A DNA stretch of 63,919 nucleotides, filler included. It is 7 parts of 7 records of this genome, joined end to end, with 100 filler letters (N's around TTAATTAATTAA, not from the genome) between each part and the next. Parts side by side here need not be neighbours in the genome. Positions count along the whole stretch, not along the records: positions 1 to 12,782 come from SRR31156797_6236; 6 more parts are not named here. One strand, given 5' to 3'. Of this stretch, positions 1 through 21,716 are shown in pieces. The position numbers and the translations under genes are program-made. Numbering within the stretch: position 1 is the stretch's first letter; each line of letters begins with the position of its first letter. The notes under the pieces were generated by a model. That model did not search any database and was not told the origin of the DNA. It worked only from the letters and a program-made list of their open reading frames with translations.

Positions 1-10
1 ACCTATCAAT

Positions 11-48
11 AAAAAAGCAGCAAAGAGATGGTTTCTCTTTGCCGCTTT
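11..48 (-). terminator. Intrinsic terminator of the secreted-protein operon
   Basis: Hairpin AAAGCAGCAAAGAGA-TGGTT-TCTCTTTGCCGCTTT with a minus-strand U-tract, about 20 nt past the stop at 69. Confidence 0.75.
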
Positions 49-68
49 GGGTTTGGGGTGAATCTTTC

Positions 69-497
69 TTACATTCCGAAGGACTGCTGGAATGAGGCGA
101 AGTCGTCCAGGTCAACGTCGTTGTCCTGGTCGAAGTCGAGGCATTCGCAGCCGGTGTTGAGACCTGCGTCGGGACCCCACAGACAGTAGTCGAAGTCTGC
201 GAAGTCGTTGAGGTCTACGTCGTAATCTCCGTCGCAGTCGCCGGGGACGGGTTCAGGGTCCGGGGCTGACAGTGCCCAGAAGCCGCCGGTGAGTTCATAG
301 TTGCCCCCGGTCATGGTGTAGCTCGCGTCCGGCTGGCCGATGGTACCGGAGAGTTCGTAATCCCCTCCGGTAGAGAGGATGGCGCCTCCACCGTCGATCG
401 AGAACCATGGAATATTGAAGTCCGCGGCCAGAACCGTTACCGACAGGCTTATCACCAGGACAGCGGGTGCTGTGATCGTTTTTCTATTGAAAGGCAT
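69..497 (-). CDS. Small secreted protein with a WFSIDGGG...GTIGQPDA...LTGGFW domain and a C-terminal dockerin/EF-hand-like Ca-binding repeat
   Basis: Signal peptide MPFNRK...VLA; GDCDGDYDVDLNDF and DFDQDNDVDLDDF repeats; ATG at 497 preceded by GGAG/AAGGA. Confidence 0.75.
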   Translation of the reverse strand: MPFNRKTITAPAVLVISLSVTVLAADFNIPWFSIDGGGAILSTGGDYELSGTIGQPDASYTMTGGNYELTGGFWALSAPDPEPVPGDCDGDYDVDLNDFADFDYCLWGPDAGLNTGCECLDFDQDNDVDLDDFASFQQSFGM

Positions 498-569
498 TGT
501 TTTTTCCTTTCTCCAGCTGCCCGACAAACGAGCAGCGTGTTATGGTAGTCTGCATCATAGCAGAACCTC

Positions 570-2141
570 TTACTGTTTTTCAATCCGCACATCGTAGCCC
601 TTGTAGGTCATGGGTTTATCGAAAATCAAGGGATCGTTTACCAGTTGGTGCGTCGATCCTGCTTTCATGATCAATGTCGTGTTTTCCGGTGATGAATCGG
701 TTGCATGAACCAGGTTGACGTATGGATCATTCGGAGTACCGTCTCCACTCACGAACAAGCCGGATTCCACGAACCGAACGACACCTTCAGGTGCGATCCG
801 TACCGCGTGACCCTGGTCGTTCGGAAAAACGTCATCGCACGTATACCAGTCGGTCGAACCTCCGCCCCAGCCCATGTTCATGAGGAACTGGGTAGGCGAG
901 ACGTTGTCGTTGTACCCGGCAATCACCCAGGAGTGCCCACCGGAATCACTCTGCCCTTTGAGTTGTACGGGACGATACCACTGGAGTTCATTCATCATGG
1001 TCACTGTGCTGCGTCCCCAGAAGACGACATCCGGATCGTAATCGAAGTATGTTCGATATGACCAGGGAGTGTTGCTTGTAAATGCAGAGGAAGCCCAAAC
1101 ACCATAGTCCATGCCGACAGCTACGCCACAGTGATAACTGATTTCGGCCGCTTCGAGATCGCTTGTCGAGGGTGGATCTGAAGCGTTGAGTGGCATAATG
1201 CTCCAGTTGTACGTTGCTGTTCCGAAATTCACAGAAAAATTCGTGGAATCCGTCGTCATCCTTGACCACAAATTACTGAGAGCGGTTTGGTAATCGCTGT
1301 TGTCTTCGTCTTCATTCTGAGCACCACTATAGAGCGTACCATCCCAGTACCCTTTCATGTGAAGGTAACCTCCGCTCCAATGAAGGCGAGTGATCCAGCT
1401 TCCTGGTAGCTGCGGATCGGTTGCGCATGGCTCAAGCAACCAGATTGTTGAATACCGATAGTCATAAGTTCCGCTTCTGCTCCCACTGCCGGAAGCGGGC
1501 CACTTCCAGTAATACATAATCTGCGCCATGGCGGTGGCAACACAGCCTGTAATCGTATGTTCGTCCGCACCGGGTGTGAGTTCCGGACAATAGTCGCTAA
1601 ACGGAGAGCCTTGTCTCCAGTACGTTTTGACCGGGAGAGTCATATAGGTCGGCGTTCCGCGGAGATCTTTTTCTTCAGCAACCTCGGGGATTTCGCCTGC
1701 GATGAGTTGACCCCATTGGATCGCGCGCTGGTTGAGCAGGTCGCTGTACTGTTCCAGCTCGACAGCGTTCTTTGATTCAGCATCAACGATTTTGAAATAG
1801 CGCGTTGCGATTTCGTCGAGGATGAACTGGTAGTTCGGGTTGGCGGGATCGAACTTTCCCTTTGCGTTGTAGAGATAGACGGGCAGGAGTCGGTCGTCGG
1901 CTCCACAGATGCAGTAGCCGTCGTCCAGGTGGGCGATATACGCGACCGCGACGCCTTCGACCTCGTATGCTTCGAGTTCTTCGATCACTGCGTTTTCGCG
2001 TGCGTCGGCGGTTATGTAGCGGACCCATGTTTCGGCCGCGTCGATCACCTGGCCCTGCTTGATTTCGGCTGCTTGTGTGGCCGACGCCAGAGCTATCGCC
2101 ACGAGCAGGATCGGTACTTTATTGTGTTTGTTTCTGGTCAT
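570..2141 (-). CDS. C10 family (streptopain/SpeB-like) cysteine peptidase with propeptide
   Basis: Signal peptide; W-Q-P motif, TGCVATAMAQIMYYW (catalytic Cys), GGHSWVIAGY (His), MNMGWGG. Confidence 0.9.
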   Translation of the reverse strand: MTRNKHNKVPILLVAIALASATQAAEIKQGQVIDAAETWVRYITADARENAVIEELEAYEVEGVAVAYIAHLDDGYCICGADDRLLPVYLYNAKGKFDPANPNYQFILDEIATRYFKIVDAESKNAVELEQYSDLLNQRAIQWGQLIAGEIPEVAEEKDLRGTPTYMTLPVKTYWRQGSPFSDYCPELTPGADEHTITGCVATAMAQIMYYWKWPASGSGSRSGTYDYRYSTIWLLEPCATDPQLPGSWITRLHWSGGYLHMKGYWDGTLYSGAQNEDEDNSDYQTALSNLWSRMTTDSTNFSVNFGTATYNWSIMPLNASDPPSTSDLEAAEISYHCGVAVGMDYGVWASSAFTSNTPWSYRTYFDYDPDVVFWGRSTVTMMNELQWYRPVQLKGQSDSGGHSWVIAGYNDNVSPTQFLMNMGWGGGSTDWYTCDDVFPNDQGHAVRIAPEGVVRFVESGLFVSGDGTPNDPYVNLVHATDSSPENTTLIMKAGSTHQLVNDPLIFDKPMTYKGYDVRIEKQ

Positions 2142-2168
2142 GATTGCACCTCCATTGCTGGTTGCGAT

Positions 2169-4724
2169 TTACTGAAGGTTGACCAGGACCAGCACCATGC
2201 CGGTCTGTCCTTTTTCGAGCTTGCTCATGGCTTTGCCGATGACGGCACCGTGGGCACGCGTGAAGTCCGTAACGGGCATTGCGTAACCGGCTTTATCCGA
2301 TGTGGTCAGCATGTCACCGGGCTGAACCGCCTGCAGTGAAGCATCGCACTTGACCCACACTCTCCCGCTCAGGGCTACAGGCTGCGAATTGGTTGACCCC
2401 GGAAGATCGGCAAGCACCATGCCGACGTCGACACCGTTGGCGCCACTGACGACACCCGCGACGCGGCGGTTGTATTGTCCTTTGGCGATTCGGAGTTTGC
2501 CGGGGTTGTCGGGATCGATTTCGACGACGGTTCCGGGTTCGGCTTCCCTGTCTGTGACGTCAAAGTTTTCGGCGAGGTCGGAACCTCCCATGATCTCAAG
2601 GATGTCGACCTTGGTCGTGCCTTCGCTTCCGTCAACATGGAAGACCAGGTTCGACGTATTGTATTCGTAAACCCGGACATCACCGGAGAATCGCCCTGCA
2701 GAAGACGGGCTTTTTGCGTAGATTGCGTACCAGGGGGCTTCGGCCCAGATAGCGACACCCTCGCCGCCTTCGGCGACTGCTTTCACGGCTTCTGCGTAAT
2801 CGCCCGTGACGTGAGCGTAGACGCCGGAGCCACTTGAGCTGTTTGTTTCGAACCAGCCACCGTAGGTTTCATTGCCGCTGATTGCGCCGGCAGAACCCTT
2901 CACGCCGTAACAGTTTGTGCCTGAACTGCTGAATCTTGCTCCGTTTCCTGCTGAAGAACCATATACGGCAGTCCCCGTCGAACTGCTGCTGTATCCGCGA
3001 ATTGAGGTTCCATCTGACGTAACATAAATGCCCATGCCATTACTCCCAGTCGCACTGAAGTATCCGGCTGCGGCATCGCTATCCGACGAGGGATTGTCGA
3101 GCTTGGCGCTGATCGCATGCGATGACATCCCGGATCCGGTGTTGGTCACTTTAAATGCGGCGGTTGAGCTGGAGACTGTCCCGTCATAGGGAAGTGAGAA
3201 ACCGCTTCCGCCCGTTGATTCCTGCCAGGTTCCGACACCGCTGGAATCGCAGGTAAGGACATATCCGGCGGAGGCTCCTCCATCGAGCTGGAAGCCATTC
3301 ATGCGAACGGTTCCATTGACGTCGAGTTTCTCGGTCGGGCTGGTTGTGCCGATGCCGACATCGCCGGAGAAGTACCCCTTGCCGTAGAAGTAACCACCCC
3401 ATCCAGTGCTGCAACTACCATAGACACCGTATCCGCCGTTACTATTGTATCCGTAGACACCGCGGCCGGACGAGCTGGAGGATCTTCCGTACAGGCCGTA
3501 CGTGGTTCCTGTTGTTGCAGTAGACGTACCATAGATGGCTCGTCCGCCCGTGCCCGATGTTGATGCATAAAGCCCATATGCGGTACCGGTTGCCTGCGTG
3601 TTCGTGACATACGCCGTTCGGGAACTACTTGTCGTTACTTCAAGGGGATATGACGGGCTGGATGTTCCGATGCCGACATCGCCTGTTGTGTACCAGGCAT
3701 CTGTGCCATCGGTTTCCCAGACGGTTTCACCTCCACCCGTAGGGGGAGCCTGCCAGGTTCCGAAGCCTGAAGCATTTGCGGTGAGGACGTGCCCGGGTGT
3801 CGCAGATTCGCCGATCTGGATGGCAGACATCTTGGCTGTTCCCGCGACATGAAGCATCTGGTCGGGATCGTCGGTTCCGATGCCGAGGTAGTTTTCAAAG
3901 AAGCCTTTTCCTTCGAAGTAGCCGCCGAATCCTTCCGTGCTTGAGGTTACGCCATGAACCGCTATTGCAGGTCCCGTAGTGGCGGTGTTTTTGCCGAAGA
4001 CGCCTGCTCCATCAGGAGTTCGTGTTTCACCAACAACTCCCCTAGCAGTACCTGTCAGCGTGTCACCATATCCATGCACACCATATCCGTTGATATTGGT
4101 AGTTGCTCCATACACACCATAGTATCCCTCGCCGTGAACGCCGGCGTATTCGGAGCCGAGGTGTCCAATGGTGTTTTCTCCCTCGCACTGTCCCGTGACG
4201 GCATAGGTGCTCGATTCAATGACATGCAATCGCGAATTGGGGCTGCTGGTGCCTACCCCAACTTTTCCATCGGAATAATAGATGCCTCCTGTTGTGGGGT
4301 TCCATGGAGAATCACCGCCACCGCTTGCACAATCCAATGCATAGAGGGCAAAGGGTGCGGGCGTGATGGGCTGCCGGGTGCCGAGCGTAACCGCGGGGCT
4401 TCCTTTCGGGACAGACACTTCGATTTCCATCCAGTAGGTTGTGCCGTCGAAAACGCCGGGGCCGAAATCGACGTAGGCGTTGAACTTGCCTTCAACAAAA
4501 TCGACTCCGATAGCCCAGGTTTCATAGACCATTGTTCCATGGATCGACGACGTGTACAGCATGAAGTGCAGGTCGCCGTTGTCTGTAACGGGTTCGCCAC
4601 GGAAGTTGAGTTCACCCTGGTAGGTGAAGCCGCTCAATTGTGCCTGTGCCAGCGACGTGCATACACAGACCGCCAGCAATGTGACCAGAACCATCCACGT
4701 TCGTTTTTCGCTTTCCATCATCAA
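2169..4724 (-). CDS. Secreted Gly/Thr-rich fibre-like protein with N-terminal FTYQG domain, VGIGT repeats and a C-terminal intramolecular-chaperone/autoproteolysis-like domain
   Basis: Signal peptide; GFTYQGEL; repeated (V/L)G(I/V)GTxxP and GVYG motifs; C-terminal GGSDLAENF...VAGVVS...PVALSGRV.VK...PGDMLTTS...IGKAM. Confidence 0.7.
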   Translation of the reverse strand: MMMESEKRTWMVLVTLLAVCVCTSLAQAQLSGFTYQGELNFRGEPVTDNGDLHFMLYTSSIHGTMVYETWAIGVDFVEGKFNAYVDFGPGVFDGTTYWMEIEVSVPKGSPAVTLGTRQPITPAPFALYALDCASGGGDSPWNPTTGGIYYSDGKVGVGTSSPNSRLHVIESSTYAVTGQCEGENTIGHLGSEYAGVHGEGYYGVYGATTNINGYGVHGYGDTLTGTARGVVGETRTPDGAGVFGKNTATTGPAIAVHGVTSSTEGFGGYFEGKGFFENYLGIGTDDPDQMLHVAGTAKMSAIQIGESATPGHVLTANASGFGTWQAPPTGGGETVWETDGTDAWYTTGDVGIGTSSPSYPLEVTTSSSRTAYVTNTQATGTAYGLYASTSGTGGRAIYGTSTATTGTTYGLYGRSSSSSGRGVYGYNSNGGYGVYGSCSTGWGGYFYGKGYFSGDVGIGTTSPTEKLDVNGTVRMNGFQLDGGASAGYVLTCDSSGVGTWQESTGGSGFSLPYDGTVSSSTAAFKVTNTGSGMSSHAISAKLDNPSSDSDAAAGYFSATGSNGMGIYVTSDGTSIRGYSSSSTGTAVYGSSAGNGARFSSSGTNCYGVKGSAGAISGNETYGGWFETNSSSGSGVYAHVTGDYAEAVKAVAEGGEGVAIWAEAPWYAIYAKSPSSAGRFSGDVRVYEYNTSNLVFHVDGSEGTTKVDILEIMGGSDLAENFDVTDREAEPGTVVEIDPDNPGKLRIAKGQYNRRVAGVVSGANGVDVGMVLADLPGSTNSQPVALSGRVWVKCDASLQAVQPGDMLTTSDKAGYAMPVTDFTRAHGAVIGKAMSKLEKGQTGMVLVLVNLQ

Positions 4725-5113
4725 TCTCCTTCTTCTGTGATTTCTGTCTCAGACCTGGATTGTTTATTTCTGGAGGTGTCCTGCTTCCCGACTCCTCGTG
4801 TCCACTTTTCTGCTTCCGGGTATGGATTCCGCTGTCAGAGTCTGCGGCTACGCACCCTTGCGACAATGCGCAAGGGAATGCGCAAAAAGAATTCGAAAAA
4901 GCAGAAAAACCTGATTCGTCCTGGTCCCAGTGTGTTGATTGTGTTTGCATCCGGACAATGAAGTGATCGCGTGTCCAGACAATATTCCCTGCTTCAGTCG
5001 ATAAGAATCATGGTACTGAGTCTCAGGAGCAATACAAGTTGCCAGAACCAAAAGCCTGTTTGAAGTGAAGCTTCATTCGGCAATGCTTTGAGATGTGACA
5101 ATTTATGGCTTAT

Positions 5114-5147
5114 AAAAAGGCACCAGTTTTCTATGACTGGTGCCTTT
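5114..5147 (-). terminator. Intrinsic terminator after the Tes-like gene
   Basis: AAAGGCACCAGT-tttctatg-ACTGGTGCCTTT hairpin with a minus-strand U-tract. Confidence 0.8.
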
Positions 5148-5173
5148 GAAATTTCAAGTGTTTAGAGAACCGG

Positions 5174-7186
5174 TTATCCGAGTTTTCCTTCCCAGGGCTG
5201 GACGGCGTCCGGGTGTGCTGCGGGGCGGATCGGAATTTCCGGGTTTTCCATTTTCCACTGTTCGGACGGGACGGCGAGCATGTCCTCGATGAACGGGCGG
5301 AAGGTCGGTCCGCCATTGATCGCACAGAACGGATAGAAGCCATCCGGAGTGGAGTACTGAATGACGCATCGCTTGACACGTTCGGTATCGTAGTTGTAGC
5401 GGTCCATGAAGTGCATACCCGCAGCCATGAGTGTTTTGTAGGATTTCCTTTCACCATCGCCGCGACCGTACTTCTTGTTGGTCAGGCCGAGCAGGGCGCG
5501 AATGAACGTCATCGGGCCGATGCGTTTGTCGCGGGCGGACCAGCGATAGTTTTTGGCGAACTTCCATGCGATCCGATAGGTGTCGAGCTTTGTTGCCTTA
5601 TCGCGTTTTGCACCGATCTTGAGTGCGTAGTCGTTGAAGTCCTTCATCAACTTGTAGAAGTTGAAGAGCGACGGGATGGGAATCGCTTCCTTTTCCGGTG
5701 TGACGAAGTAGTAGGTTCCGAAGGCGCAGTCGCTGTGGCAGCTTGCACGGATTTTCGGCTTACCGTCCATCAACTGCATTACGCGGGATAACGGGGACAT
5801 GACACCCAGGGGCAGGAAGTCGCGTTCGATGTCACACCCACATTCGTCAACCAGGGTATGAGCGAGATCACCAAGAGTGTATCGCTGGGCTTCGCGATCC
5901 CGCTGGTTGATTCGTCCGCAGAATGAAACCGGCTGGTATGCAATTGCGCTGATGGCATCAACATGATCGACAGCATAGCGGAAGATGTCGCCAACCAGGT
6001 GATCGTTCACGCCCTTGACGATGGTCGGAACGAGGCAGATCTTCATGCCTGTGCGTTTGCAGTTTTCCACGACCTGCTGCTTGTACTCCCAGACATCTTC
6101 GCCGCGGAGTTTTTTATGGATCTCGGCGTTGGGGCCGTCGAACTGCATATATAATGTATGCAGCCCTGCTTCGGCGGATCGCTTTGCGAATTCATAGTTG
6201 GCGTGGGTGATGCCGTTGGTTGCAATCTGGATGTGGCTGAATCCCATCTCGGTTGCTTTGGCGACGATGCGGTGGAAGTCCGGGTGGATCGTGGGTTCGC
6301 CGCCTGTAAACTGGATCGCGGTTGACGGATAGGGTCGGATGTTGCGGAGCGCCTGCATCATTTCGACGACCATCTCATAGGATGGCTGTGAGACTTTTCC
6401 CGCTGCACTGGCGCTGGCGAAGCAGATCGGGCAGGCGAGATTGCATCGATTGGTCAGGTCGATCTGCGGAAGGACCGGACCCGAGAGGTGCTGGCCGCAG
6501 CCACCACAATCGCTGGGGCAATGTTTGCCGTCGCGGACGGGTGGCTTTTTCATTCCGCGTTCATCCTGGAAGGTGGATTTAGCGGAGTGGATGTAGAGTT
6601 TCGCGTCGGTGAAGATTTTGTCCCGGCAGTAGCCATGCTCGGGGCAGGTTTTTTCCATCCAGACGTCGCCGTCCATCTCGAAGTATCGGCCGAGAATGAT
6701 GGCGGAGCATTCCGGGCAAAGGGTTTCGACGGTTCGCGGGAGGTTCTTCAGCGGTGGCTTGATTTTTGCACCAGTGTGGGTGGTTTCCGGCTGGTGCGGA
6801 TGGAAGTCGGGCATCTTTTTGACGAACATTGCGTCGTCGTGCTTTTCCCTGTGGGTATTGCACTGCGGGCAATCGTACTCAAGGTAGACGGCATCTTCGG
6901 ACTCTTCATAAATATACTTCGAATCGACCAGTCGACCACATTTACAGCAGGTGGCTTCGCAGGTGATGGGGAGTCCGTGGTCTACCGGGTGGTGCTTTCG
7001 CATCGCAAGCTTGTACTGTTCGAGTTCGGTCCGGGCGGTTTCGGGACTGACGGTCTCTCTGCCGATCTGGGTGAATGGACGATACACAATGCCGGAATGT
7101 TGTCTGCCATCTTCATGCTGCGAGGATTCATCTAACTGCGGGGTAGAAGAGTCCGTGGCTTGATACTCGTCCAAATGTTTCATCAT
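5174..7186 (-). CDS. tes: Radical SAM protein of the tetraether lipid synthase (Tes/GDGT-MAS, MJ0619-like) family, with an extra N-terminal metal-binding repeat
   Basis: LCPEC...KTCPEHG rubredoxin-like site; CPSDCGGCGQH; IDLTNRCNLACPICFA (CxxxCxxC); QFTGGEPT, ATNG, YMQFDG, VPTIVKGVND, QPVSFCGR, CHSDC, MHFMDRYNYD..RVKRC, PFC. ATG at 7186 with SD AAGGGAG. Confidence 0.88.
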   Translation of the reverse strand: MMKHLDEYQATDSSTPQLDESSQHEDGRQHSGIVYRPFTQIGRETVSPETARTELEQYKLAMRKHHPVDHGLPITCEATCCKCGRLVDSKYIYEESEDAVYLEYDCPQCNTHREKHDDAMFVKKMPDFHPHQPETTHTGAKIKPPLKNLPRTVETLCPECSAIILGRYFEMDGDVWMEKTCPEHGYCRDKIFTDAKLYIHSAKSTFQDERGMKKPPVRDGKHCPSDCGGCGQHLSGPVLPQIDLTNRCNLACPICFASASAAGKVSQPSYEMVVEMMQALRNIRPYPSTAIQFTGGEPTIHPDFHRIVAKATEMGFSHIQIATNGITHANYEFAKRSAEAGLHTLYMQFDGPNAEIHKKLRGEDVWEYKQQVVENCKRTGMKICLVPTIVKGVNDHLVGDIFRYAVDHVDAISAIAYQPVSFCGRINQRDREAQRYTLGDLAHTLVDECGCDIERDFLPLGVMSPLSRVMQLMDGKPKIRASCHSDCAFGTYYFVTPEKEAIPIPSLFNFYKLMKDFNDYALKIGAKRDKATKLDTYRIAWKFAKNYRWSARDKRIGPMTFIRALLGLTNKKYGRGDGERKSYKTLMAAGMHFMDRYNYDTERVKRCVIQYSTPDGFYPFCAINGGPTFRPFIEDMLAVPSEQWKMENPEIPIRPAAHPDAVQPWEGKLG

Positions 7187-7489
7187 GGATACTCCCTTGC
7201 ATGCAATCGTACCCCGTACTGACCGCGCGATCCGGGGAAACGTTAGAACCCAACCCACCTATCCGGAAAACCTTCCACTTGATGCCAACGCTGTATAACC
7301 AATGCATCAGGAAAACCCGAGTTTCCGGGAGGAATATGGAACATTATAGTGTTTTTCCTCCAACTTCGCATCCCCTGGCGGGTCAGATGGGATATCACAA
7401 GTATTTGCCGAAACGGGGCGGTCTGGGTATAAAGCGGGCCAATGATTTCGGGTTGACCCATGAAATGGGTACCTACAGGAGTGGTTTTC

Positions 7490-8254
7490 GTGTTAAAGAA
7501 GCCTTTGTTCATACTCACTGTGCTGTCCGTGATGGTTTGTCTGACTGGATGCAATGAGCCTGTCGGGTCACAGACGATTGTCTTTCTTGATGGAGCCGGC
7601 AACTATACGGCCAGTGATGACGTTGAAGAAGGCATGCGTCAGGCTGGCTACATGGGAAGCTTTCAGACGCACCAGTGGAGCTCCTTCATGCTCTGGGCGG
7701 TCGATCATTTTGTCCTTGCCCAGACAGAGATCCCCGGCGAGCAGCTTGCTGAGAAAATCATTGACTACAAGCGCGAGTTTCCGCATGGGCGCTTATCGCT
7801 GATGGGGCTGTCGGCGGGAACGTCTGTGATTATTTCCGCACTTGAACAGTTGCCACGCGGAATGCAGGTGGATTACGTTGTGTTTCTGCAATCCTCAGCA
7901 TCAAGCCGGCATGATCTGCGCAAGGCGATGGAGCATGTCCGGTATCGTCTCTATAACACGGTCAGTCCCCGGGATCTGATTCTAAAATCGATTCCTCTAA
8001 ATGCTGACGGGCTGCGGGGATCTCCAGCTGGCCTGGCTGGCTTCCGAGTGCCTGCTGGTTTATCAAAACTGGATCGTGAGGCTTACAAGCGTGTGATCAA
8101 TCTTCCGCTTCGTCCCGGGTATGCGGCCTGGGGCTGGACGGGCGGGCATGTCCAGGTGACTGAGGCGGCGTTTATCCGCAGTGTCATCGCGCCGCGCATC
8201 CTTTCTGCCGAAGAATTTCCGCTGGATATTCCGGTACTGTCCAAAAGGAGATAG
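7490..8254 (+). CDS. Alpha/beta-hydrolase-fold lipoprotein
   Basis: Lipobox LTGC; FLDGAG oxyanion-like motif; GLSAG nucleophile elbow; C-terminal GGH. GTG start after AGGAG (alternative start 7460). Confidence 0.65.
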   Translation: MLKKPLFILTVLSVMVCLTGCNEPVGSQTIVFLDGAGNYTASDDVEEGMRQAGYMGSFQTHQWSSFMLWAVDHFVLAQTEIPGEQLAEKIIDYKREFPHGRLSLMGLSAGTSVIISALEQLPRGMQVDYVVFLQSSASSRHDLRKAMEHVRYRLYNTVSPRDLILKSIPLNADGLRGSPAGLAGFRVPAGLSKLDREAYKRVINLPLRPGYAAWGWTGGHVQVTEAAFIRSVIAPRILSAEEFPLDIPVLSKRR

Positions 8255-8315
8255 CCTGGGATTGCGGTGGCGGTCTTCTTGATCCGGTAGAGTACTGGGC
8301 GTACATTCCTGATTG

Positions 8316-9083
8316 ATGTCAAAACAGAAGCCAACCTGGTTGCTGGCGCTGGGGCGCGATGACTTCCCTGAAACGATTGAAGCGGGAGGTTCTACGTATC
8401 GCCTTACCCAGCCTTTCAAGCATGATTTTTTTGCCGCGACAGCGAAGTATGAAGGGGATGCCGGAAAGGTTGTCGCGAAGTTCGGGCGACGGATCAGCAT
8501 GTTCGGGTTGCCGATGCACTGGATCGGTACATGGCTGACGCGGCGGGAAGCCCGGATGTACAGAGCGCTTGCCGACATGGATACGGTGCCGGAGTTGATT
8601 GATCTGGTTGACGGAAATCTTCTTGTCCATGAATACATCGAAGGACATCCGCTGGAGAAAGGCGAGTATGTTCCGGATGATTATTTTGGTCTTCTTCGTG
8701 CGGCGGTTGAAGAGATTCATTCTCGCGACATGGCGTACGTCGATCTGGAAAAGTGCGAGAATGTGCTGGTCGGAGATGATGGGAAACCTTACCTGTTTGA
8801 TTTCCAGATCGCGTTTCACTGGCCGAAGAAATATGGCGGGAACCTGTGGCCCGCGCGATACCTGCTCCGGAAATTCCAGCGCGGGGACTGGTATCATGTC
8901 ACGAAGCTGCAGCGAAGGACGCGGAAAGATCAATTATCGCAGGAAGAGCTGGATGCTTCTTATCGCAAGCCGTGGTATATCCATGTTCATCGCTGGATGA
9001 TTTATCCATTCCAGACGGTTCGTCGTGCGGTGCTGAATCGAATTGATCCGAAGCGTGGGGGTGAACGTGGTCGCGTGAAGTAA
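8316..9083 (+). CDS. Protein-kinase-like (RIO/Kdo-WaaP-like) phosphotransferase
   Basis: VVAK lysine, REARMY helix-C Glu, YVDLEKCENVLV catalytic loop, LFDFQ metal-binding motif. Confidence 0.7.
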   Translation: MSKQKPTWLLALGRDDFPETIEAGGSTYRLTQPFKHDFFAATAKYEGDAGKVVAKFGRRISMFGLPMHWIGTWLTRREARMYRALADMDTVPELIDLVDGNLLVHEYIEGHPLEKGEYVPDDYFGLLRAAVEEIHSRDMAYVDLEKCENVLVGDDGKPYLFDFQIAFHWPKKYGGNLWPARYLLRKFQRGDWYHVTKLQRRTRKDQLSQEELDASYRKPWYIHVHRWMIYPFQTVRRAVLNRIDPKRGGERGRVK

Positions 9084-9109
9084 GAAGTAAACGGAATATG
9101 ACATAAGAA

Positions 9110-9141
9110 GAAGGGCGACCTCGATGGGCCGCCCTTTTTTT
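9110..9141 (+). terminator. Intrinsic terminator between convergent genes
   Basis: AAGGGCG-acctcgatgggc-CGCCCTT followed by a T-run. Confidence 0.75.
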
Positions 9142-9164
9142 ATGTAAAACCAGGTTTTCGACTT

Positions 9165-9818
9165 TCATGATTCCAGGTACATCCCCCCTGTTTCGTCGAG
9201 CCACTTCGTTATTCTTGTGCAGGCTGCGTCGACATCATCGTCTGAAATGTCGACGACCAGTGTGGGCAGGATGGATGCTTCGACGCGGCGGATGAGTTCT
9301 TCCTGTTCCTTGACGAACCGGGTGAGGTCGTCGTACTGGGAAGGATTGCCCGAAACTTTCAGACGCTCTTTCTTTGCCTCTGCGAAGGATTCCGGGGTGC
9401 GGGTGCAGAAGATCAGGCGGAAACCGAGGGGGTTCATTCTTTCTTCGAGCCAGGAGAAGTCGTACTCACGGCCATATTCCTGGGACTGGAACATTGCGGT
9501 CGAAAGGTGAAACCGGTCGATGGTCCACGAGTAGTAACGATTGAGTTCGAAGAGCTTAACCCATGTGCGGTACGTCTCCATGGCCAGTTCTTCTTCCTCT
9601 TTTTCGAAGTTGATCAGGCCGCGTCCCCATGGGAAATTCGTGAAGGTGCACCATTCCCCGGAGATCAAGGGAGAGTGGTAGCGGTATTTTTTTGGTCCGA
9701 CGAAATCATCGTGCTCGTTCAGTGCGAATGCGATATCGGTTTTGTGCGTCAACCGGGTGCCTTCGAGAATAACCTTCGGACACATCTTCTTGAAATTACT
9801 CGTTGTGCTTTTGCTCAT
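9165..9818 (-). CDS. Nucleoside monophosphate/thymidylate kinase-like fold protein, function unknown
   Basis: VILEGTRLTHKT variant P-loop, IDRFHLS motif, LIFCTR...ERL lid. Confidence 0.55.
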   Translation of the reverse strand: MSKSTTSNFKKMCPKVILEGTRLTHKTDIAFALNEHDDFVGPKKYRYHSPLISGEWCTFTNFPWGRGLINFEKEEEELAMETYRTWVKLFELNRYYSWTIDRFHLSTAMFQSQEYGREYDFSWLEERMNPLGFRLIFCTRTPESFAEAKKERLKVSGNPSQYDDLTRFVKEQEELIRRVEASILPTLVVDISDDDVDAACTRITKWLDETGGMYLES

Positions 9819-9884
9819 TGGGTAGTCTTTCCTGCTTGATAGAAAAGGAATTCGTTTCCTGCGAGTGGGATACCAACGACGTCG

Positions 9885-11549
9885 TTACACGGGTATCCGG
9901 GTTGCGACGAGATGGCCCGCGGCTTTCTGCTGAATCAAGTGATAGGGTTGTCCACCCATGTGATTGTTCCCGTTTGCTCCCTTGTCCGGCGGGAAGTCGA
10001 GTCGGTAGTGAACTCCTCGTGATTCGTTTCGATGCCCGGCAGCGGATGCGATGAGACAACCGACGGTCAGCATGTTCTGGGTTTCCCACCCACTGACGTC
10101 GTCGAAGACTTTATCCATGACGAATCGTCCCCAGAATTCGATGATCTCGATGGTTTCGCGAAGAAAATCGCCTTTTCGTGCGATGCCTACGTTTCTCCAC
10201 ATGAGGCTTCGAAGGCTGTTGCGAATATCGCCGAGGTCCAGCTGCGTGTGAGCGGATTCCGGATTCTGGCTGTTGATTTTTTTCACCCCTGCGGGTTCGG
10301 GCATTTCCCGAAGCGACTGGCCTGCGACTCGCCCAGCGACGGCACCGAAGACCAGGGCTTCCAGCAGTGAATTACTGGCAAGTCTGTTGGCTCCGTGCAG
10401 TTTGCTGTTGGATGCTTCGCCACAGCAGAGCAGGCCATCGACATCCGTCCTGGCGTTTTCATCGACAGCGATGCCTCCGATCATGTAGTGAGCGGCTGGT
10501 CGGACCGGGATCAGGTCTTTGCCGACATCGATGCCGAACTCTTCGCAATGCTTCGTGATAGAGGGGAACCGTTTTGCAAATGCATCCCGACCGATGTGGC
10601 GGACATCGAGAAACGCGCTGGTGGCGCCGGTTTCCTTGAGCATTTTCTGGATCGACAGACTGACAATATCGCGCGGTGCCAGTTCGCCATCGGCATGATA
10701 GTTATACATGAAGCGGTGTTCGTTGCGATCAACCAGATGCGCTCCTTCACCGCGGACAGCTTCAGAAATCAGGGCACGGGACGCACCTGCGATATACAGG
10801 GTTGTGGGGTGGAACTGGATCATTTCCATGTCCCGCAGCGTAGCACCGGCACGCCAGGCGACCGCACACGCGTCCCCTGTTGCGATCGCGGGATTGCTCG
10901 TTTCGCGATAGATGCGTCCGCAGCCACCGGAGGCGAGGATTGTCTGCCCTGCCCAGATCAGCTGATGACCGTGTTTCGGATGGAACGTAACGGCTCCCAT
11001 GCACTTCCCATCGATGGTGATCAGGTCGATCAGGAAACAATGATCAAAGAGCCGGACGTTCGGGCATTCCTGCATTTTCGCCAGGAGTCCCCTGCTGATT
11101 TCTTTACCAGTCGCATCGCCAAACGAATGCAGAATGCGTCTGTGTCGGTGGCCGCCTTCCATCGTGAGATCGACGTCGGCGCCGGAGGAGTCAAACTGAA
11201 TTCCCCATTCACGCAGTTCACGAATGCGATCAGGTCCTTCGCGGACTGCCATTTCGACGATATTCGATTCGTTCAGCCCTGCCCCTACCCGAATCGTGTC
11301 CTGTGCATGAGATTCGTAGGAATCATCGGTCGCGACAGCTCCGGCGATGCCACCCTGGGCGTATGCGCTGATTGACTCAGCCGGCGAATCCTTGGTAATG
11401 ACGATGACGTCACCATGGTTTGACGCTTCGATCGCGGCTCTCGCTCCGGCAACACCACTTCCAACGATGAGGATGTCCGTCAGGATGTTTCCGGTTCGGG
11501 ACACATCAAAGTCGGTCAGGTACCGTCGGGATTCAAATGCCGTAGTCAT
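9885..11549 (-). CDS. nadB: L-aspartate oxidase
   Basis: IVGSGVAG, YAQGGIA, EGGH..RRILH, QFHPT, LISEAVRGEG, ELAPRD, AAHYMIGG, LHGANRLASNSLLEA, ESRGVHYR. Confidence 0.95.
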   Translation of the reverse strand: MTTAFESRRYLTDFDVSRTGNILTDILIVGSGVAGARAAIEASNHGDVIVITKDSPAESISAYAQGGIAGAVATDDSYESHAQDTIRVGAGLNESNIVEMAVREGPDRIRELREWGIQFDSSGADVDLTMEGGHRHRRILHSFGDATGKEISRGLLAKMQECPNVRLFDHCFLIDLITIDGKCMGAVTFHPKHGHQLIWAGQTILASGGCGRIYRETSNPAIATGDACAVAWRAGATLRDMEMIQFHPTTLYIAGASRALISEAVRGEGAHLVDRNEHRFMYNYHADGELAPRDIVSLSIQKMLKETGATSAFLDVRHIGRDAFAKRFPSITKHCEEFGIDVGKDLIPVRPAAHYMIGGIAVDENARTDVDGLLCCGEASNSKLHGANRLASNSLLEALVFGAVAGRVAGQSLREMPEPAGVKKINSQNPESAHTQLDLGDIRNSLRSLMWRNVGIARKGDFLRETIEIIEFWGRFVMDKVFDDVSGWETQNMLTVGCLIASAAGHRNESRGVHYRLDFPPDKGANGNNHMGGQPYHLIQQKAAGHLVATRIPV

Positions 11550-11725
11550 AACCGGGGAATCGTACACGGCTGGAGTGAGTGATACAAACGGTAAAAGGAC
11601 TCGAAACAGGGAATTCCAGGATGACGGATTCGGGGTTTGAGCAGAAGTCCAACAAGAGATTATCGGACTTGCTTTGGGCCATCTGCTATCTGAAGAGGAG
11701 CTCCTGAAATACCGATAACCGAAGT

Positions 11726-12782
11726 ATGGTACAATGTGTCCGACAGTGTGCAGGTCCGATAGCGATGCTGCTGATTGCCATGCTTTGCGCCTCCGGTGCA
11801 GAGGCACAATCAGTGGATGGCGGAGTTCAGTTTGACTCCACCCGTATCGTTCACGAGTTCACGTTCCATGAACCGGAGAACTATACCGATCTGCCGATGT
11901 ACTGGATTCCTTTTTCCACGACCCCTCGATACACCATTGGTCATTTTGATAAGAAAGTCGGCCATGAAGCGGCTCCCTCCTTTTACCTGGGCCTGAACGG
12001 CCAAGATGTGGGCTATCGTTATCTTGGGCCCCGCCGGAACACGCAGGTCCGTCCGGACAGTGATTATGAGATCACAGGGTGGATCAAACCGGATCGACTG
12101 AAGAATTCTCGTGCCGTCCTGTCTGCGTATTACCTGGATCGGGATGGCATTCCGATTCCGGGAACGCAGCAGTTCAGCAAGCTCGCAGGACCGGAAGCCG
12201 GTTCGGACTGGCAGGAGGTCCGGATTCATCTTCCCAGCGGGCCGCGTGACGCCCAGAGTATCGGGCTGATGGCGAGAGTCATGCAGCAGACTTCGTGGGA
12301 TCCGGATACACCACCTCATCGTCATATCGACCAGGTCAACGTTGAAGGGGGTGCATGGTTTGACGATATTGTTATCTATCGCCTTCCCCGTGCGAGTCTG
12401 ACCATCAAGAAACCCGGAGCCTTCTTTGAAAAACCGGACGACCCAGAAGTTTCCGTATTGGTGACAGACAGCGACACAAGTGGACTGAGCACAACGCTTA
12501 CGCTTACCGACGCGACCGGCACGGAGATCGATCACCGCTCTATCAAAGTGCAGATCGGGCAATTTGCAAAGCCTCACGTTGTTCGTTACGAAAACCTTTC
12601 ACCCGGGCGTTATACCACGACACTTACGATCAAAGGCGGAAAATACACGCTAGTCAAGCGGAAGCGATCCTTTGTCGTGTTGAGCCAGCCTGCGAGTACA
12701 CGGCTGATTTCTTATCCATCTTTCGGAATCGATCTCGATGGTCCCGGCAATACCCAGGACCAGGTAGCACTGCTGAAGGGGC
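11726..12782 (+). CDS. Secreted protein with a CBM-like beta-sandwich domain (3'-truncated)
   Basis: Signal peptide; YEITGWIK...WQEVRI...AWFDDI galactose-binding-like pattern; ORF runs into the spacer. Confidence 0.55.
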
Positions 12783-12882
12783 NNNNNNNNNNNNNNNNNN
12801 NNNNNNNNNNNNNNNNNNNNNNNNNNTTAATTAATTAANNNNNNNNNNNNNNNNNNNNNNNNNNNNNNNNNNNNNNNNNNNN
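12783..12882. other. Artificial contig spacer (N44-TTAATTAATTAA-N44)
   Basis: Linker with stops in all six frames; sharp GC-to-AT shift across it. Confidence 0.97.
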
Positions 12883-13658: not shown

Positions 13659-15656
13659 GTGATCATAATGACTAAAAGCAGAAGAATACAGATTTTGTTT
13701 TTATTTTTAATAATGTTTTGTATTTCATTTGCAGAATTTGAAAAGAAAATTTTAGTTCTTCATTCATATCATAAAGGTTTTTTATGGACTGATAATATGA
13801 CTGAAGGAATCGATAGTGTTTTTGATAATAGATCAAAATATGAGCTTCATCATGAGTATTTAGATTATAAAAGACATAATGATGAAGAGTATATTAAAAA
13901 ATTAACGGAGATTTATAAAGAAAAGAAACGAGATATTAATTTTGACGGAATAATTACTACAGATAATTTTGCTCTGGATTTTGCTCTGGAATATAGAGAC
14001 GAACTATTTAAAGATGTTCCGATAGTATTTTGCGGGATAAATGATTATACTCCTTCACTAATTGATGGACACAAAGATATTACAGGAGTAGTGGAAAAAC
14101 CTGATCATCGGGGAACTCTTGATTTAATGCTTTCATTACATCCAAAAACAGAAAATATAATAATCCTAACTGATAAAACTCCAACAGGTCAAAAAATTAA
14201 AGCTGAAATATTAGCAATTCTTCCAGAGTATTTTGGTAGAGTTAAATTGGAAATTCACGAGGATTTTTATCTTGAAGAGATATTTCAAACTTTAAATCAA
14301 TTGCCAAAAAGAAGTTTAGTTTACATGGTTGTAATAAATAGAACAATTGATAGGAGTTTTGTATCATACGAAAGTGTTACAGAGCTAGTAAAAAATTCAA
14401 AGGTTCCGTTTTATGCTTCGTGGGAGATATATCTTGATAGAGGAATAGTTGGAGGAAAGATATTAAGAGGTTTCTCTCAGGGGGAACGTGCAGGAAACTT
14501 AATGTTGAAAATACTATCTGGAACTCCGCCAGCTAAACTTGCTGTTGAAGAGGAAGCTTCAGGAGATTATATCTTTGATTCCGAAGAATTAAAAAGATTT
14601 CAAATATCTCTTAGTAAATTACCGGTTAATAGTAAAATTATTAATTCTACGGATGGTATTTTTAAACAAAATATGAAATTAATGGTTTTAGCTCTCCTTG
14701 GAGTCTCATTAATTATACTCGTGATATTATTAAAAATATTCTATAGCAAAAAAGAAGAAAAAAGAATAAACATAAAAAATGCTGAACTTGAAGAGAAAGT
14801 AAAACATAGAACGAATCAGCTGGAGATAGCTAATACTGAGCTGAAAAAACAACAAGAGAAAAGAATAAAAAAAGCATATAAAGATGGATATATAAAAATT
14901 AAAATAGAGCTTTTAAAAGATATAATGGATATTATAACTCCACTGGAAAAGGTTTTAAATGAAGAGATTGATTATAAAAGATTAGATAAAAAAAGAGAGA
15001 TAGATTTTTTTGAAAAGAAAATTTTATTGAAACTTCAAAATACGGATTTATTAGAAGAACTTAATAAAGATCTTAAACAGATTCCTGATATTATTGAAAA
15101 TATTAAGCATCAAAAAGTGGAAGAGTTAAAAAGACTTAAATTTTGTGAAAAAGAAATTTCCCATCTTAAAGAGATTGTGAGAATGGGAGAGGATGCCTCA
15201 GGAACAATGAATAGTGAAAGTTTTTTAGATATTAACAAAATCCTAATTGAAATTGTAAATGATTATCTTGATAGAAGAGAGATGAAGATAGAAACATATT
15301 TGCAGCCAATAGAAAAATTATTAATAGAAAAATCTCAACTAGAAAAAATATTTTCAGATTTGATTAGAAATCAATACGAAGCTATATTATTATCAAATTT
15401 CGATGAAAAAACTTTATATGTTGAATCATATAATGAAACAAATTATGCTAAAATATTAATATACTCTAAACAAACTCTTTATAGTGAAGAGTTTATTGAA
15501 AATATCTTTAATCTATCATATATTACAAATGAGAAAAATAGAAAATATTTCGAATTATATGGGTGTTTTCAAATGATTAAAAAATACGGAGGTAAATTTG
15601 AAGTACAACACAATGAGGAATTAGGGGATATGTTTATACTATATTTACCGAAATAG
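13659..15656 (+). CDS. Degenerate sensor histidine kinase (ABC substrate-binding-like sensor, TM, DHp/HATPase remnants)
   Basis: LVLHSYHKG..WT, PIVFCGIN, GIVGG sensor motifs; H-box His absent, G1 and G2 boxes lost. Confidence 0.75.
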   Translation: MIIMTKSRRIQILFLFLIMFCISFAEFEKKILVLHSYHKGFLWTDNMTEGIDSVFDNRSKYELHHEYLDYKRHNDEEYIKKLTEIYKEKKRDINFDGIITTDNFALDFALEYRDELFKDVPIVFCGINDYTPSLIDGHKDITGVVEKPDHRGTLDLMLSLHPKTENIIILTDKTPTGQKIKAEILAILPEYFGRVKLEIHEDFYLEEIFQTLNQLPKRSLVYMVVINRTIDRSFVSYESVTELVKNSKVPFYASWEIYLDRGIVGGKILRGFSQGERAGNLMLKILSGTPPAKLAVEEEASGDYIFDSEELKRFQISLSKLPVNSKIINSTDGIFKQNMKLMVLALLGVSLIILVILLKIFYSKKEEKRINIKNAELEEKVKHRTNQLEIANTELKKQQEKRIKKAYKDGYIKIKIELLKDIMDIITPLEKVLNEEIDYKRLDKKREIDFFEKKILLKLQNTDLLEELNKDLKQIPDIIENIKHQKVEELKRLKFCEKEISHLKEIVRMGEDASGTMNSESFLDINKILIEIVNDYLDRREMKIETYLQPIEKLLIEKSQLEKIFSDLIRNQYEAILLSNFDEKTLYVESYNETNYAKILIYSKQTLYSEEFIENIFNLSYITNEKNRKYFELYGCFQMIKKYGGKFEVQHNEELGDMFILYLPK

Positions 15657-15704
15657 TGATTCAAATTTATCTGGCGAAGTTTTACATTAATTAAGGTGGT
15701 TTTT

Positions 15705-17696
15705 ATGAAATTTAAAATCAAAATTAATATATTAATTTTTCTTTTACTTTTATGTGCTGTTAGTTTTGCTAATGATAACAAAAAAATATTAGTAATGCAC
15801 TCATATCATAAAGGTTTCTACTGGACTGATTCAATTACAAATGGAATTGATAGTGTTTTTGGTGGAAAAAAAGATGTAGATATTTATTTCGAATACCTGG
15901 ATCTTAAAAGAAATACAAATAAGAGTTACATAGACAGGTTATCTGAATTTTATAATTTGAAATATAAAGATATAAAATTTGATGGAATTATTATTTCTGA
16001 TAACTTGGCACTTAATTTTATTGTTAAAAATAGAAAAAAATTATTTAATAATATTCCAATAGTATTTTGCGGAATTAATAATTTTGAAGAAAAGTTATTA
16101 CATGGTGAAAAAAAGATAACCGGTATAGTTGAACGCGCTGATTACCGGGGAACTCTTGATTTAATGATTAAACTTCATCCTGATGCAGAGGAAGTGCTTG
16201 TAGTAACTGATACTACTTTTACTGGTAATGAAATTAAAAAAGAGATAAATAGGATTATACCGGAATATAAAGCAAGATTTGATTTTGAGATAATGGATAA
16301 TTATACAATTTTAGAACTAGAGGAAAAACTAACGTCACTTCCTGAAAAAACGCTTGTTTTTGCACTAGTAATGAATAAATCTAGAGATGGTAACTTTATT
16401 TCATATGAAAGAGGCGCAGAGCTACTGGCAAAATCAGAAATGCCTGTTTATTTGGGTTGGGAATTCTATTTTGGTAAAGGAGCTGTCGGTGGAAAAATAA
16501 CAAGTGGTTTTCTACAAGGACAAATAGCTTCGCAGATGCTTTCTGAAATTTTCAATGGGGCAGATCCATATACGATGGGAATAAAAACTCAATTTACGTC
16601 TGAGTATAAACTTGATTATAATGCTCTTAAAAAATTTGAGATTGAAAAATCAGTATTACCTGAACAAGTTATTATAGCTAATAAACCTAGAAGTTTTTTG
16701 GAAAAAAACATTGAAAATTTTGTCCTTGGTTCATTTGCAGTATTATTTTTGATTTTTATCTTAATTTTTAAATTAAGATTTAATATGAAAAAAAAGAATG
16801 AAAAAGTAGAACATAGTATTAAACTTGAGAGAAAAATAGCTCAAAGAACAATTGAGCTGGAGGAAGTTAATAAAAAAATTATGGAGCAACAAAGTAAATT
16901 AGTAAAACAGGCATATAACGAAGGTTTTAGCAGAGTAAAATCAGGAATAATTCATAATATAGGAAATGTCGTTAATCCTTTACATATAGCAATGCAGGAA
17001 GAGATTAATTATAGAGAGATTGATAAAGAGCATGAAATTAGATTCTTTGAAGAAGTTCTATATGCTGAATTAATAAAGACTCAAATATCAACAGAGAAAA
17101 AAGAAAAAATTATAAAAGTATTACCTGAAATACTAAAAGCGATGAAAGATAAAAAAAATGCTGAGTTTAACAGATTAAAATATTGTCAAAAAGAGATTGA
17201 ACATCTCAAGAGTATTATAAGACTTCAAAAGAACTATTTAGGTACTTTGGGAACAGAGAGTTACTTTGCTGTGAATGAGTTACTAAAAGAGGTAATCGAC
17301 AAAAGAGACTTTGATTATAAACTTAATTTGGAATTAGAGCTTCATTCGGTTGAAAAAGTATTGTGTGACAGAGTACAGATAATACAGGTATTTGATAATA
17401 TAATTAAGAATCAAGCTGATGATCTTCTTTCGTCAGAAAAAGTATATAAATTGCTTAGAATAACAACTGAAGAGAATGAGAAAAATGTAATAGTTAAATT
17501 TAAGGATAATGGAGAAGCTTATCCGGAGAGTTTTGTAAGAAATATATTTGATTTATCTTTTATAACCAAAGAAAAAAATAGGAAAAATTTTGAACTATAT
17601 GGATGTTATCAAATAATTAAGAAATATGGTGGAAATATAACACTTGAGTCAGATCCGAGAAATGGAAATATATTTACAATCTTTATACCAAAATAA
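15705..17696 (+). CDS. Sensor histidine kinase paralog (ABC substrate-binding-like sensor) with a degenerate G2 box
   Basis: Same sensor motifs; IIHNIGN H-box, NIIKN, KDNG, IFDLSFITK; G2 replaced by KNFEL. Confidence 0.8.
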   Translation: MKFKIKINILIFLLLLCAVSFANDNKKILVMHSYHKGFYWTDSITNGIDSVFGGKKDVDIYFEYLDLKRNTNKSYIDRLSEFYNLKYKDIKFDGIIISDNLALNFIVKNRKKLFNNIPIVFCGINNFEEKLLHGEKKITGIVERADYRGTLDLMIKLHPDAEEVLVVTDTTFTGNEIKKEINRIIPEYKARFDFEIMDNYTILELEEKLTSLPEKTLVFALVMNKSRDGNFISYERGAELLAKSEMPVYLGWEFYFGKGAVGGKITSGFLQGQIASQMLSEIFNGADPYTMGIKTQFTSEYKLDYNALKKFEIEKSVLPEQVIIANKPRSFLEKNIENFVLGSFAVLFLIFILIFKLRFNMKKKNEKVEHSIKLERKIAQRTIELEEVNKKIMEQQSKLVKQAYNEGFSRVKSGIIHNIGNVVNPLHIAMQEEINYREIDKEHEIRFFEEVLYAELIKTQISTEKKEKIIKVLPEILKAMKDKKNAEFNRLKYCQKEIEHLKSIIRLQKNYLGTLGTESYFAVNELLKEVIDKRDFDYKLNLELELHSVEKVLCDRVQIIQVFDNIIKNQADDLLSSEKVYKLLRITTEENEKNVIVKFKDNGEAYPESFVRNIFDLSFITKEKNRKNFELYGCYQIIKKYGGNITLESDPRNGNIFTIFIPK

Positions 17697-17745
17697 AAAT
17701 ATAGCCAGAACTTAGTTAAACTAGGTTCTGGCTATATTTTTATTT
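17696..17745 (+). terminator. Intrinsic terminator
   Basis: AAAATATAGCCAGAAC(T)TAG...CTAGGTTCTGGCTATATTTT inverted repeat plus T-run. Confidence 0.85.
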
Positions 17746-18737: not shown

Positions 18738-18770
18738 AAGAGTTTAAAAGAATAATAGAACTAAAATACT

Positions 18771-21713: not shown

Positions 21714-21716
21714 AAA

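Follow-up and report, generated by a model that had tools for sequence, protein, structure and literature searches.

A Tes/GDGT-MAS homologue with an added N-terminal ribbon domain, encoded on a Phycisphaerae-like contig

Branched glycerol dialkyl glycerol tetraethers (GDGTs) serve widely as proxies of past temperature and pH, and to our knowledge both their producers and their synthase are unproven. The locus described here lies on the minus strand of a window of 63,919 nucleotides (the whole stretch of DNA that was analyzed, filler included). It raises the question of whether a planctomycete-like bacterium encodes a tetraether lipid synthase, Tes (GDGT-MAS), of the kind known from archaea, and on which lipids such an enzyme would act. 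Previously, Zeng et al. 2022 (PMC8941075) described 456 Tes homologues from bacteria and suggested that they act in branched GDGT (brGDGT) synthesis, and Halamka et al. (PMC10087280) reported that Solibacter usitatus makes brGDGTs, with its Tes homologues as the proposed synthase. Tes homologues were also found in 110 of 684 Black Sea Planctomycetota metagenome-assembled genomes (MAGs), explicitly in the class Phycisphaerae (PMC11868695), and bacterial gms genes, including 71 of planctomycete origin, are found clustered with tes (PMC11214058). Both the Phycisphaerae homologues and the Planctomycetes tes-gms clusters are therefore already in the literature.

The open reading frame (ORF) spans 5174..7258 on the minus strand and encodes 694 residues when counted from a GTG. 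The in-frame ATG at 7186 was preferred over this upstream GTG at 7258 because a GGGAG precedes the ATG by 5 bases, and the span given in an earlier note on this DNA, 5174-7186, was thus correct. The resulting 670-residue protein is called P0001 (Table 1). A promoter scan returned no sigma-70-like sites around the gene, although such a scan is uninformative for planctomycetes.

Family membership was examined with curated profiles and solved structures. Pfam assigned P0001 a radical S-adenosylmethionine (SAM) core (PF04055) and, at residues 150-191, PF23545, "HMPTM N-terminal zinc ribbon." The NCBI curated Tes equivalog model (NF045702) aligned with residues 154-638 over profile positions 3-483 of 486, with a score of 456.2 bits (cut-off, 450; E 1.2e-136), and the only control genomes passing this cut-off were those of M. 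jannaschii, S. acidocaldarius, and M. acetivorans. The sole strong match among solved structures was GDGT-MAS of Methanocaldococcus jannaschii (7TOL/7TOM; E 1.2e-105, query residues 139-646), to which P0001 is 36 to 37% identical; SkfB and MoaA followed at ∼1e-7. The second-best NCBIfam match was TrsS (NF045646), at 288.8 bits, and this match is the starting point for a different explanation, in which P0001 is not a lipid enzyme at all but a radical SAM maturase, TrsS-like or other, whose resemblance to Tes is confined to the N-terminal half. Proteins that resemble Tes in this partial way do exist: roughly 30 matches listed for genomes from the class of one close relative (L001; see below) score only ∼225 to 250 bits, cover profile positions 2 to ∼315, and are not Tes. 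However, the TrsS score of P0001 is far under the cut-off of 490 and covers residues 153-454 only, whereas the Tes model and the 7TOL alignment also take in the C-terminal cluster domain, ending at residues 638-646. A maturase is thus very improbable.

Next, the predicted metal ligands were compared with those of the archaeal enzyme. GDGT-MAS is described in PMC9433317 as having an iron site, C9-X2-C12-X20-C33-X2-H36; an N-terminal cluster on C73/C77/C80 plus a His; a CX3CX2C cluster; a C-terminal cluster with a labile Met439; Tyr459; and a loop with Gln268/Ser271/Arg275. Equivalences were mapped by counting along a HMMER alignment to 7TOL, with the numbering of PMC9433317, and conservation was assessed in a 38-sequence alignment (A1) and in 33 long-type sequences, which share an N-terminal extension with P0001; counts out of 33 refer to the latter. 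The rubredoxin-like site has the spacing C157-x2-C160-x20-C181-x2-H184, matching C9/C12/C33/H36. The radical SAM motif C248-x3-C252-x2-C255 and G295-G296-E297-P298 are invariant in 38/38 sequences of A1 and in 33/33 long-type sequences. M591 corresponds to the labile Met439, C607 to C455, C621 to C470, and Y611 to Tyr459, and the loop residues Gln268/Ser271/Arg275 correspond to Q418/S421/R425. C487, C607, and C621 are invariant throughout A1, the C-terminal ligands including M591 are present in 33/33 long-type sequences, and every metal ligand is kept in 33/33 of these relatives.

The earlier note had listed a series of motifs running from the rubredoxin-like site to the C-terminal cluster, and all were present in P0001 in the stated order; QPVSFCGR lies at residues 418-425, CHSDC at 483-487, MHFMDRYNYDTERVKRC at 591-607, and PFC at 619-621. 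Its CHxxC motif stands in part: the motif is there, but only the second Cys (C487) is invariant in the family, the first being aligned to Ser in the solved archaeal enzyme.

To relate these ligands to structure, an AlphaFold2 model of P0001 was built on A1 (mean predicted local distance difference test score [pLDDT], 85.9; predicted template modeling score [pTM], 0.88). Superposition on 7TOM/7TOL gave target-normalized template modeling (TM) scores of 0.90/0.91 with a root mean square deviation of 2.9 Å over 500 to 508 columns, and the next-best fold was MoaA, with a TM score of 0.53. The model thus predicts that the C-terminal lipid-pocket domain is present, at the level of fold rather than of individual pocket residues. 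P0001 shares with GDGT-MAS/Tes of M. jannaschii (MJ0619) four domains, four sets of metal ligands, the labile Met, and the Q/S/R loop; it differs in its bacterial host, in ∼135 extra N-terminal residues with an all-Cys ribbon, and in a substrate that is probably non-isoprenoid.

The placement of P0001 within the family was determined from two maximum likelihood trees. A profile scan with one genome per species yielded 599 relatives from 600 candidate stretches, and the best 80 were taken. These 80 were from Planctomycetota (45 to 60% identity), Acidobacteriota (42 to 48%), Anaerolineales-titled genomes (41 to 44%), Thermoplasmatota archaea (40 to 44%), and a few others. The first tree (quick search, LG+G4, Shimodaira-Hasegawa-like approximate likelihood ratio test [SH-aLRT], no outgroup) had 109 rows, comprising the 80 locus-translated sequences, P0001, and 28 unnamed representatives. 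P0001 was placed beside L001-L003 (SH-aLRT, 99) within a 21-row Planctomycetota clade (100). That clade was nested in an 80-row clade (99) whose titled members are bacterial save one "archaeon," with 14 rows lacking a phylum label; the Thermoplasmatota sequences fell outside it. In the second tree, of 97 rows, 16 sequences from genomes of L001's class and three representatives were added, and two sets were omitted: 25 Acidobacteriota rows that were nearly redundant and six unnamed rows on long branches. This tree agreed, with a 24-row long-type clade (100) in a 73-row bacterial clade (100). Both trees are unrooted and many of their deep rows are unnamed. The stem of the long-type clade measured 0.39 to 0.51 changes per column across the two trees.

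The bacterial Tes clade (SH-aLRT, 99 to 100) includes the Acidobacteriota proteins of Bryobacteraceae/Solibacteraceae, for which, in Solibacter usitatus for example, a role in brGDGT synthesis has been proposed. Thus, the phylogenetic check that had been suggested for this gene places P0001, in both trees, in a strongly supported Planctomycetota clade within the bacterial Tes clade, and not in a distant radical SAM clade devoid of the lipid-binding pockets, whose domain is predicted from the fold. With the curated profile, the ligand set, the predicted fold, and the trees in agreement, we regard membership of P0001 in the Tes/GDGT-MAS family, as the earlier note had claimed, as virtually certain.

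Whether the host is a bacterium was examined through the DNA linked to the gene. The window contains six spacers of the form N44-TTAATTAATTAA-N44, at 12783-12882, 26255-26354, 32742-32841, 40657-40756, 53410-53509, and 58817-58916; it therefore represents seven separate contigs, and linkage across a spacer is not to be assumed. The Tes contig has an even guanine-plus-cytosine (G+C) content of 53 to 57%, and the next piece has 26 to 31%. Across the window the content alternates between 26 to 31% and 46 to 57%, indicating that at least two organisms are mixed. Such mixing, which includes a Firmicutes-typical PolC-type polymerase on one low-G+C contig, could suggest that the gene is archaeal or sits in a misassembled chimera and that its bacterial assignment is an artifact. 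However, the mixing occurs only at the explicit spacers, the composition within 1-12782 is even, and archaeal sequences lie outside the 73- to 80-row bacterial clade.

The genes on the Tes contig also argue against a chimera. The nearest Tes relatives in the genome collection are from MAGs titled Planctomycetota, Phycisphaeraceae, or Phycisphaerae (64 to 70% identity). The same nearest MAGs hold counterparts of the neighboring NadB in three of four cases (67%, 69%, and 52% identity; the fourth has a 32% paralogue only) and of a kinase-like neighbor in all four (57 to 61%). The Tes contig is thus a coherent Phycisphaerae-like fragment, neither archaeal nor a recent import, and an archaeal or chimeric origin is extremely improbable. 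The view that the flanking genes look Phycisphaerae-like accordingly holds for positions 1-12782 but does not extend past the first spacer. Matches to P0001 in a 5.8-billion-cluster protein collection were in keeping with a bacterial host: the best was 69% identical, and the best 120 were all PF23545+PF04055 proteins (54 to 69% identity), two of them named "tetraether lipid synthase Tes [Planctomycetota bacterium]" and others "radical SAM protein [Phycisphaerae bacterium]" or, from JGI, [quoted passage not shown]

P0001 begins with a region that most of the family lacks. Close relatives align from query residue ∼16 to 72 onward, whereas the Acidobacterial, Anaerolineales-titled, and archaeal proteins begin at ∼120 to 150 (the Acidobacterial ones at ∼120, without the extra ribbon). 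In a library of representatives from 50% identity clusters, just one of the 150 best proteins covers nearly the full length together with the extension, and three short fragments match within the first 130 residues. PF23545 matched the extension weakly (E 0.037). An hhalign comparison of residues 66-125 with residues 148-200, using profiles from the 33 long-type sequences, gave a probability of 95.4% (E 1.7e-8, 42 columns). In the long-type sequences, C80, C83, and C106 are each conserved in 33/33 and C109 in 29/33 (His once, Asp three times). The extension was modeled as a four-stranded ribbon resembling the ribbon after it, with pLDDT values of 88 to 98 over residues 31-120. On this evidence, the rubredoxin-like domain is duplicated in tandem in the planctomycete clade, and the extra copy has Cys at the position of the His ligand. 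A literature search of incomplete coverage returned no paper linking Phycisphaerae with rubredoxin in this setting. The extra ribbon perhaps serves in electron delivery or in partner docking.

To ascertain how the long type is distributed, 301 genomes from the class of L001's genome were surveyed; 89 had a match above the Tes cut-off, and 122 had one at E ≤ 1e-50. The sampled over-cut-off matches were of three kinds: a long type (47 to 70% identical to P0001), which carries the N-terminal extension and a SPASM-domain neighbor, a short type A (42 to 45%), and a short type B (35 to 38%). The long type and short type B occur together in four genomes (G019, G033, G041, and G065), which hints at a division of labor between paralogues. 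As a separate observation, the short type A sequences (L090-L097 and L105) are nearly identical to loci titled Anaerolineaceae/Anaerolineales (L066, L072, and L076), with end branches of 0.05 for L105 and L066; this conflict of labels reflects either misassigned titles or bins or recent gene movement.

What would P0001 do? Its closest characterized relative suggests, and we consider it somewhat probable, that it is a working tetraether synthase of the bacterial clade that couples the host's own membrane lipids tail to tail. As in the archaeal enzyme, there would be three [4Fe-4S] clusters, one of the radical SAM type and two auxiliary, plus a rubredoxin-like iron site; a second, all-cysteine N-terminal metal ribbon would have been added to these. 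A 5'-deoxyadenosyl radical produced by SAM cleavage would take hydrogen from the end carbon of a lipid tail lying in a hydrophobic tunnel. A sulfide of the C-terminal cluster would then hold the substrate radical until a second SAM turnover joined that tail to another one. The likely product would be a membrane-spanning (tetraether- or tetraester-type) or macrocyclic lipid, and the substrate would most likely be the host's non-isoprenoid glycerolipid (brGDGT-like chemistry) rather than archaeol.

The choice of substrate was addressed with the pathway genes of four related MAGs, which are ∼65 to 70% identical and of unestablished completeness. PcrB/geranylgeranylglyceryl phosphate (GGGP) synthase was found in 0/4 and CarS (CDP-archaeol synthase) in 0/4, whereas both families were detected in four archaeal control genomes. 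A weak HGD-D match was present inside a long ORF in all four MAGs; in one of them (G001) this ORF encodes a 1517-residue protein with BcrAD_BadFG, DUF2229, and HGD-D domains, which we take to be the architecture of the PlsA/Ger ester-to-ether reductase. The failure to find PcrB and CarS in these MAGs, together with the HGD-D long ORFs, favors a bacterial non-isoprenoid glycerolipid as the substrate. GDGT-MAS was crystallized with bacterial phosphatidic acid in its pockets (PMC9433317), indicating that ester-linked bacterial lipids can bind this fold. At another locus (L095), a PlsA-like reductase gene at ∼4826-7444 (+), whose product is 49% identical to the 1517-residue protein, is arranged head to head with the gene for a short type A Tes.

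These data bear directly on the possibility that the bacterium makes archaeal-type isoprenoid diethers, which the enzyme would convert to true isoprenoid GDGTs. The 36 to 37% identity to GDGT-MAS and the shared architecture fit this possibility, and PMC11868695 brings up "archaeal-like lipids with rings" in connection with Phycisphaerae. However, neither PcrB nor CDP-archaeol synthase was found in the four related MAGs while the archaeal controls were positive, and, according to PMC8941075, GDGT production is not known from any bacterium. Isoprenoid GDGT synthesis is thus improbable, if a little less so than a maturase function.

A further alternative retains the radical C-C coupling and changes the hydrophobic substrate: P0001 might carry out only an intramolecular macrocyclization or act on a long-chain lipid that is not a precursor of membrane-spanning tetraethers. 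The long-type clade is distinct, its stem (0.39 to 0.51 changes per column) is long, and it has an added domain; a short Tes in the same genomes (G019, G033, G041, and G065) leaves room for functional divergence; and macrocyclic archaeol as well as GDGT is a product of the archaeal enzyme (PMC9433317). Against this stand the retention of all catalytic ligands and of the pocket-bearing fold, and tes-gms clusters in Planctomycetes fit a membrane-spanning product that is later bridged (PMC11214058). On balance, we hold this other-substrate explanation to be unlikely, albeit with an appreciable chance of being right. Nearly as credible, and likewise doubtful, is the idea that the long-type Tes with its duplicated ribbon is a sub-functionalized paralogue that takes a distinct step or substrate beside the short Tes, such as the second C-C bond or ether- versus ester-linked chains. 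The extra metal site would then wire electrons from a dedicated partner.

Gene order was also examined in the relatives. Among 27 long-type loci, a radical SAM/SPASM gene (490 to 550 residues, at least 50% identical to that of L001) directly follows Tes in 17. It was not found in eight (∼3 kb of flank in seven and ∼1.4 kb in L021), and in L004 and L019 the downstream sequence was too short to judge, with the genome of L004 showing a Tes-SPASM pair on another contig. No such gene lay downstream of Tes in the loci of other clades, including the Acidobacterial ones. The neighbor has Radical_SAM and SPASM domains and no B12 domain, and it scored below every NCBIfam cut-off. GrsA/B are B12-binding radical SAM proteins, and Gms is of the SPASM/Twitch type (PMC11214058). 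A candidate identity as a GrsA homologue was therefore rejected, and, given the SPASM type and the published Planctomycetes tes-gms clusters, the neighbor is most likely, as judged from its domains, a homologue of the published Gms.

The P0001 locus is arranged differently from most long-type loci. The long-type proteins of Phycisphaerae/Planctomycetota MAGs (e.g., L001-L003) are 45 to 70% identical to P0001, belong to the same clade (SH-aLRT, 100), and share the duplicated ribbon, but in place of a Gms-like SPASM gene the P0001 gene is followed by one for an unrelated 851-residue secreted repeat protein. Synteny with L001 was considered and rejected, as none of seven L001 neighbor proteins has a counterpart beside the P0001 gene. 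The only matches to these neighbors in the window were the radical SAM core of Tes itself and an AmmeMemoRadiSam enzyme encoded on a low-G+C contig unrelated to the Tes contig. In L001, an AmmeMemoRadiSam gene (6633-7742, -) is the immediate upstream neighbor of Tes, and the one in the window (52351-53370, -) is 34% identical; this resemblance looks like coincidence, not synteny.

Several observations weigh against P0001 as a tetraether synthase. The NF045702 score exceeds its curated cut-off by only 6 bits. The position of Ser271, in the SAM-closing loop, is Ser in P0001 but in only 10/33 clade members. The SPASM partner is absent from the 5.1 kb downstream of the gene and from the whole window, and Pfam and NCBIfam searches returned no lipid genes on the 12.8-kb Tes contig. 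The pathway context is drawn from the related MAGs described above and not from the organism itself. In the literature, the confirmed bacterial membrane-spanning lipid synthase is Mss, a different radical SAM enzyme, and Tes homologues occur in only 3/14 iso-diabolic-acid-producing Acidobacteria (PMC13159169). According to PMC11868695, bacterial Tes homologues have had no experimental test, and the section on bacterial membrane-spanning lipids in a 2026 review (PMC13459092) gives activity only for Mss. Mss of Thermotoga and Thermoanaerobacter is a radical SAM enzyme for which the same cluster-assisted Csp3-Csp3 tail coupling is proposed (PMC13459092, PMC13274423). The literature nonetheless treats Mss and Tes as separate enzymes, and in PMC13159169, BLAST with an archaeal Tes found no Tes homologue in the genomes of the two Mss-bearing species.

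The features of the Tes contig are collected in Table 1. In addition to those listed, it holds three further small genes without a Pfam match, one of them kinase-like. The neighbors at 69-527, 2169-4724, 7460-8254, and 9165-9818 had no Pfam family at E ≤ 0.001.

Table 1. Coordinates of P0001, its domains, and the other features of the Tes contig (positions in the window)
Feature	Position	Strand	Evidence or remark
Contig physically linked to the Tes gene (the only one)	1..12782	.	Ends at the first N44-TTAATTAATTAA-N44 spacer (12783-12882)
Streptopain-like C10 peptidase with Spi-inhibitor-like prodomain	570-2141	-	Neighbor on the Tes contig
851-residue secreted protein, signal peptide, Gly/Ser/Thr-rich repeats	2169-4724	-	Downstream of Tes; no Pfam or NCBIfam match
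Tes/GDGT-MAS homologue coding sequence (P0001, 670 residues)	5174..7186	-	Stop codon 5174-5176; ORF list and translation, NF045702, 7TOL
C-terminal auxiliary-cluster and predicted lipid-pocket domain, residues 483-621 (C487/M591/C607/C621/Y611)	5324..5740	-	Invariant Cys; 7TOM/7TOL fold match
Radical SAM core, residues 244-404 (C248/C252/C255; GGEP 295-298)	5975..6457	-	PF04055, E 3e-25; columns invariant in A1
N-terminal auxiliary [4Fe-4S] motif, C223-x3-C227-x2-C230-x2-H233	6488..6520	-	Alignment A1; 33/33 long-type; GDGT-MAS equivalent, C73/C77/C80 plus a His
Rubredoxin-like Zn-ribbon domain, residues 148-200 (C157/C160/C181/H184)	6587..6745	-	PF23545, E 5.7e-14; ligands 33/33
Clade-specific extra ribbon, residues 66-125 (C80/C83/C106/C109)	6812..6991	-	hhalign to residues 148-200
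Shine-Dalgarno-like GGGAG	7192..7196	-	Precedes the start ATG (7186) by 5 bases; seen in the sequence itself
L-Aspartate oxidase NadB	9885-11807		TIGR00551, 508.6 bits (cut-off, 452.75)

The other pieces of the window were also surveyed. The low-G+C pieces come from some organism other than the Tes host. One such contig, at 13659-26254 (+), is dense in cyclic di-GMP signaling genes (PilZ, GGDEF, and EAL) and also holds a 917-residue caspase-domain (Peptidase_C14) protein and a histidine-kinase-like pair. Another encodes a PolC-type DNA polymerase III, with its PHP domain split by an exonuclease, at 44751-49028 (+); its regions 49190-51376 and 51433-53370 encode a TPR-GAF-GGDEF protein together with a pair made up of Memo and an AmmeMemoRadiSam radical SAM protein. 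Firmicutes typically have PolC, which suggests a Firmicutes-like source for that contig. The contigs of mid to high G+C content at 32842-40656 and 58917-63919 held housekeeping genes only, with no lipid genes. Among sequencing runs, one DNA run contained 0.82 of the words sampled from the sequence and may be its source sample, whereas no RNA run containing them was listed.

The hypothesis, the clade, and the gene clusters being published and this copy having no informative neighbors, P0001 opens no new question; it adds one more intact clade member, for which the searched protein collection has no match reaching 70% identity. Should the long type prove to be a sub-functionalized paralogue, it would, together with a Gms-like enzyme, lead to bridged, archaeal-like monolayer lipids in anaerobic Phycisphaerae and would be a direct source of marine brGDGT and branched glycerol monoalkyl glycerol tetraether (brGMGT) signals. 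More generally, Phycisphaerae that carry Tes are candidate marine and anoxic sources of branched GDGTs.

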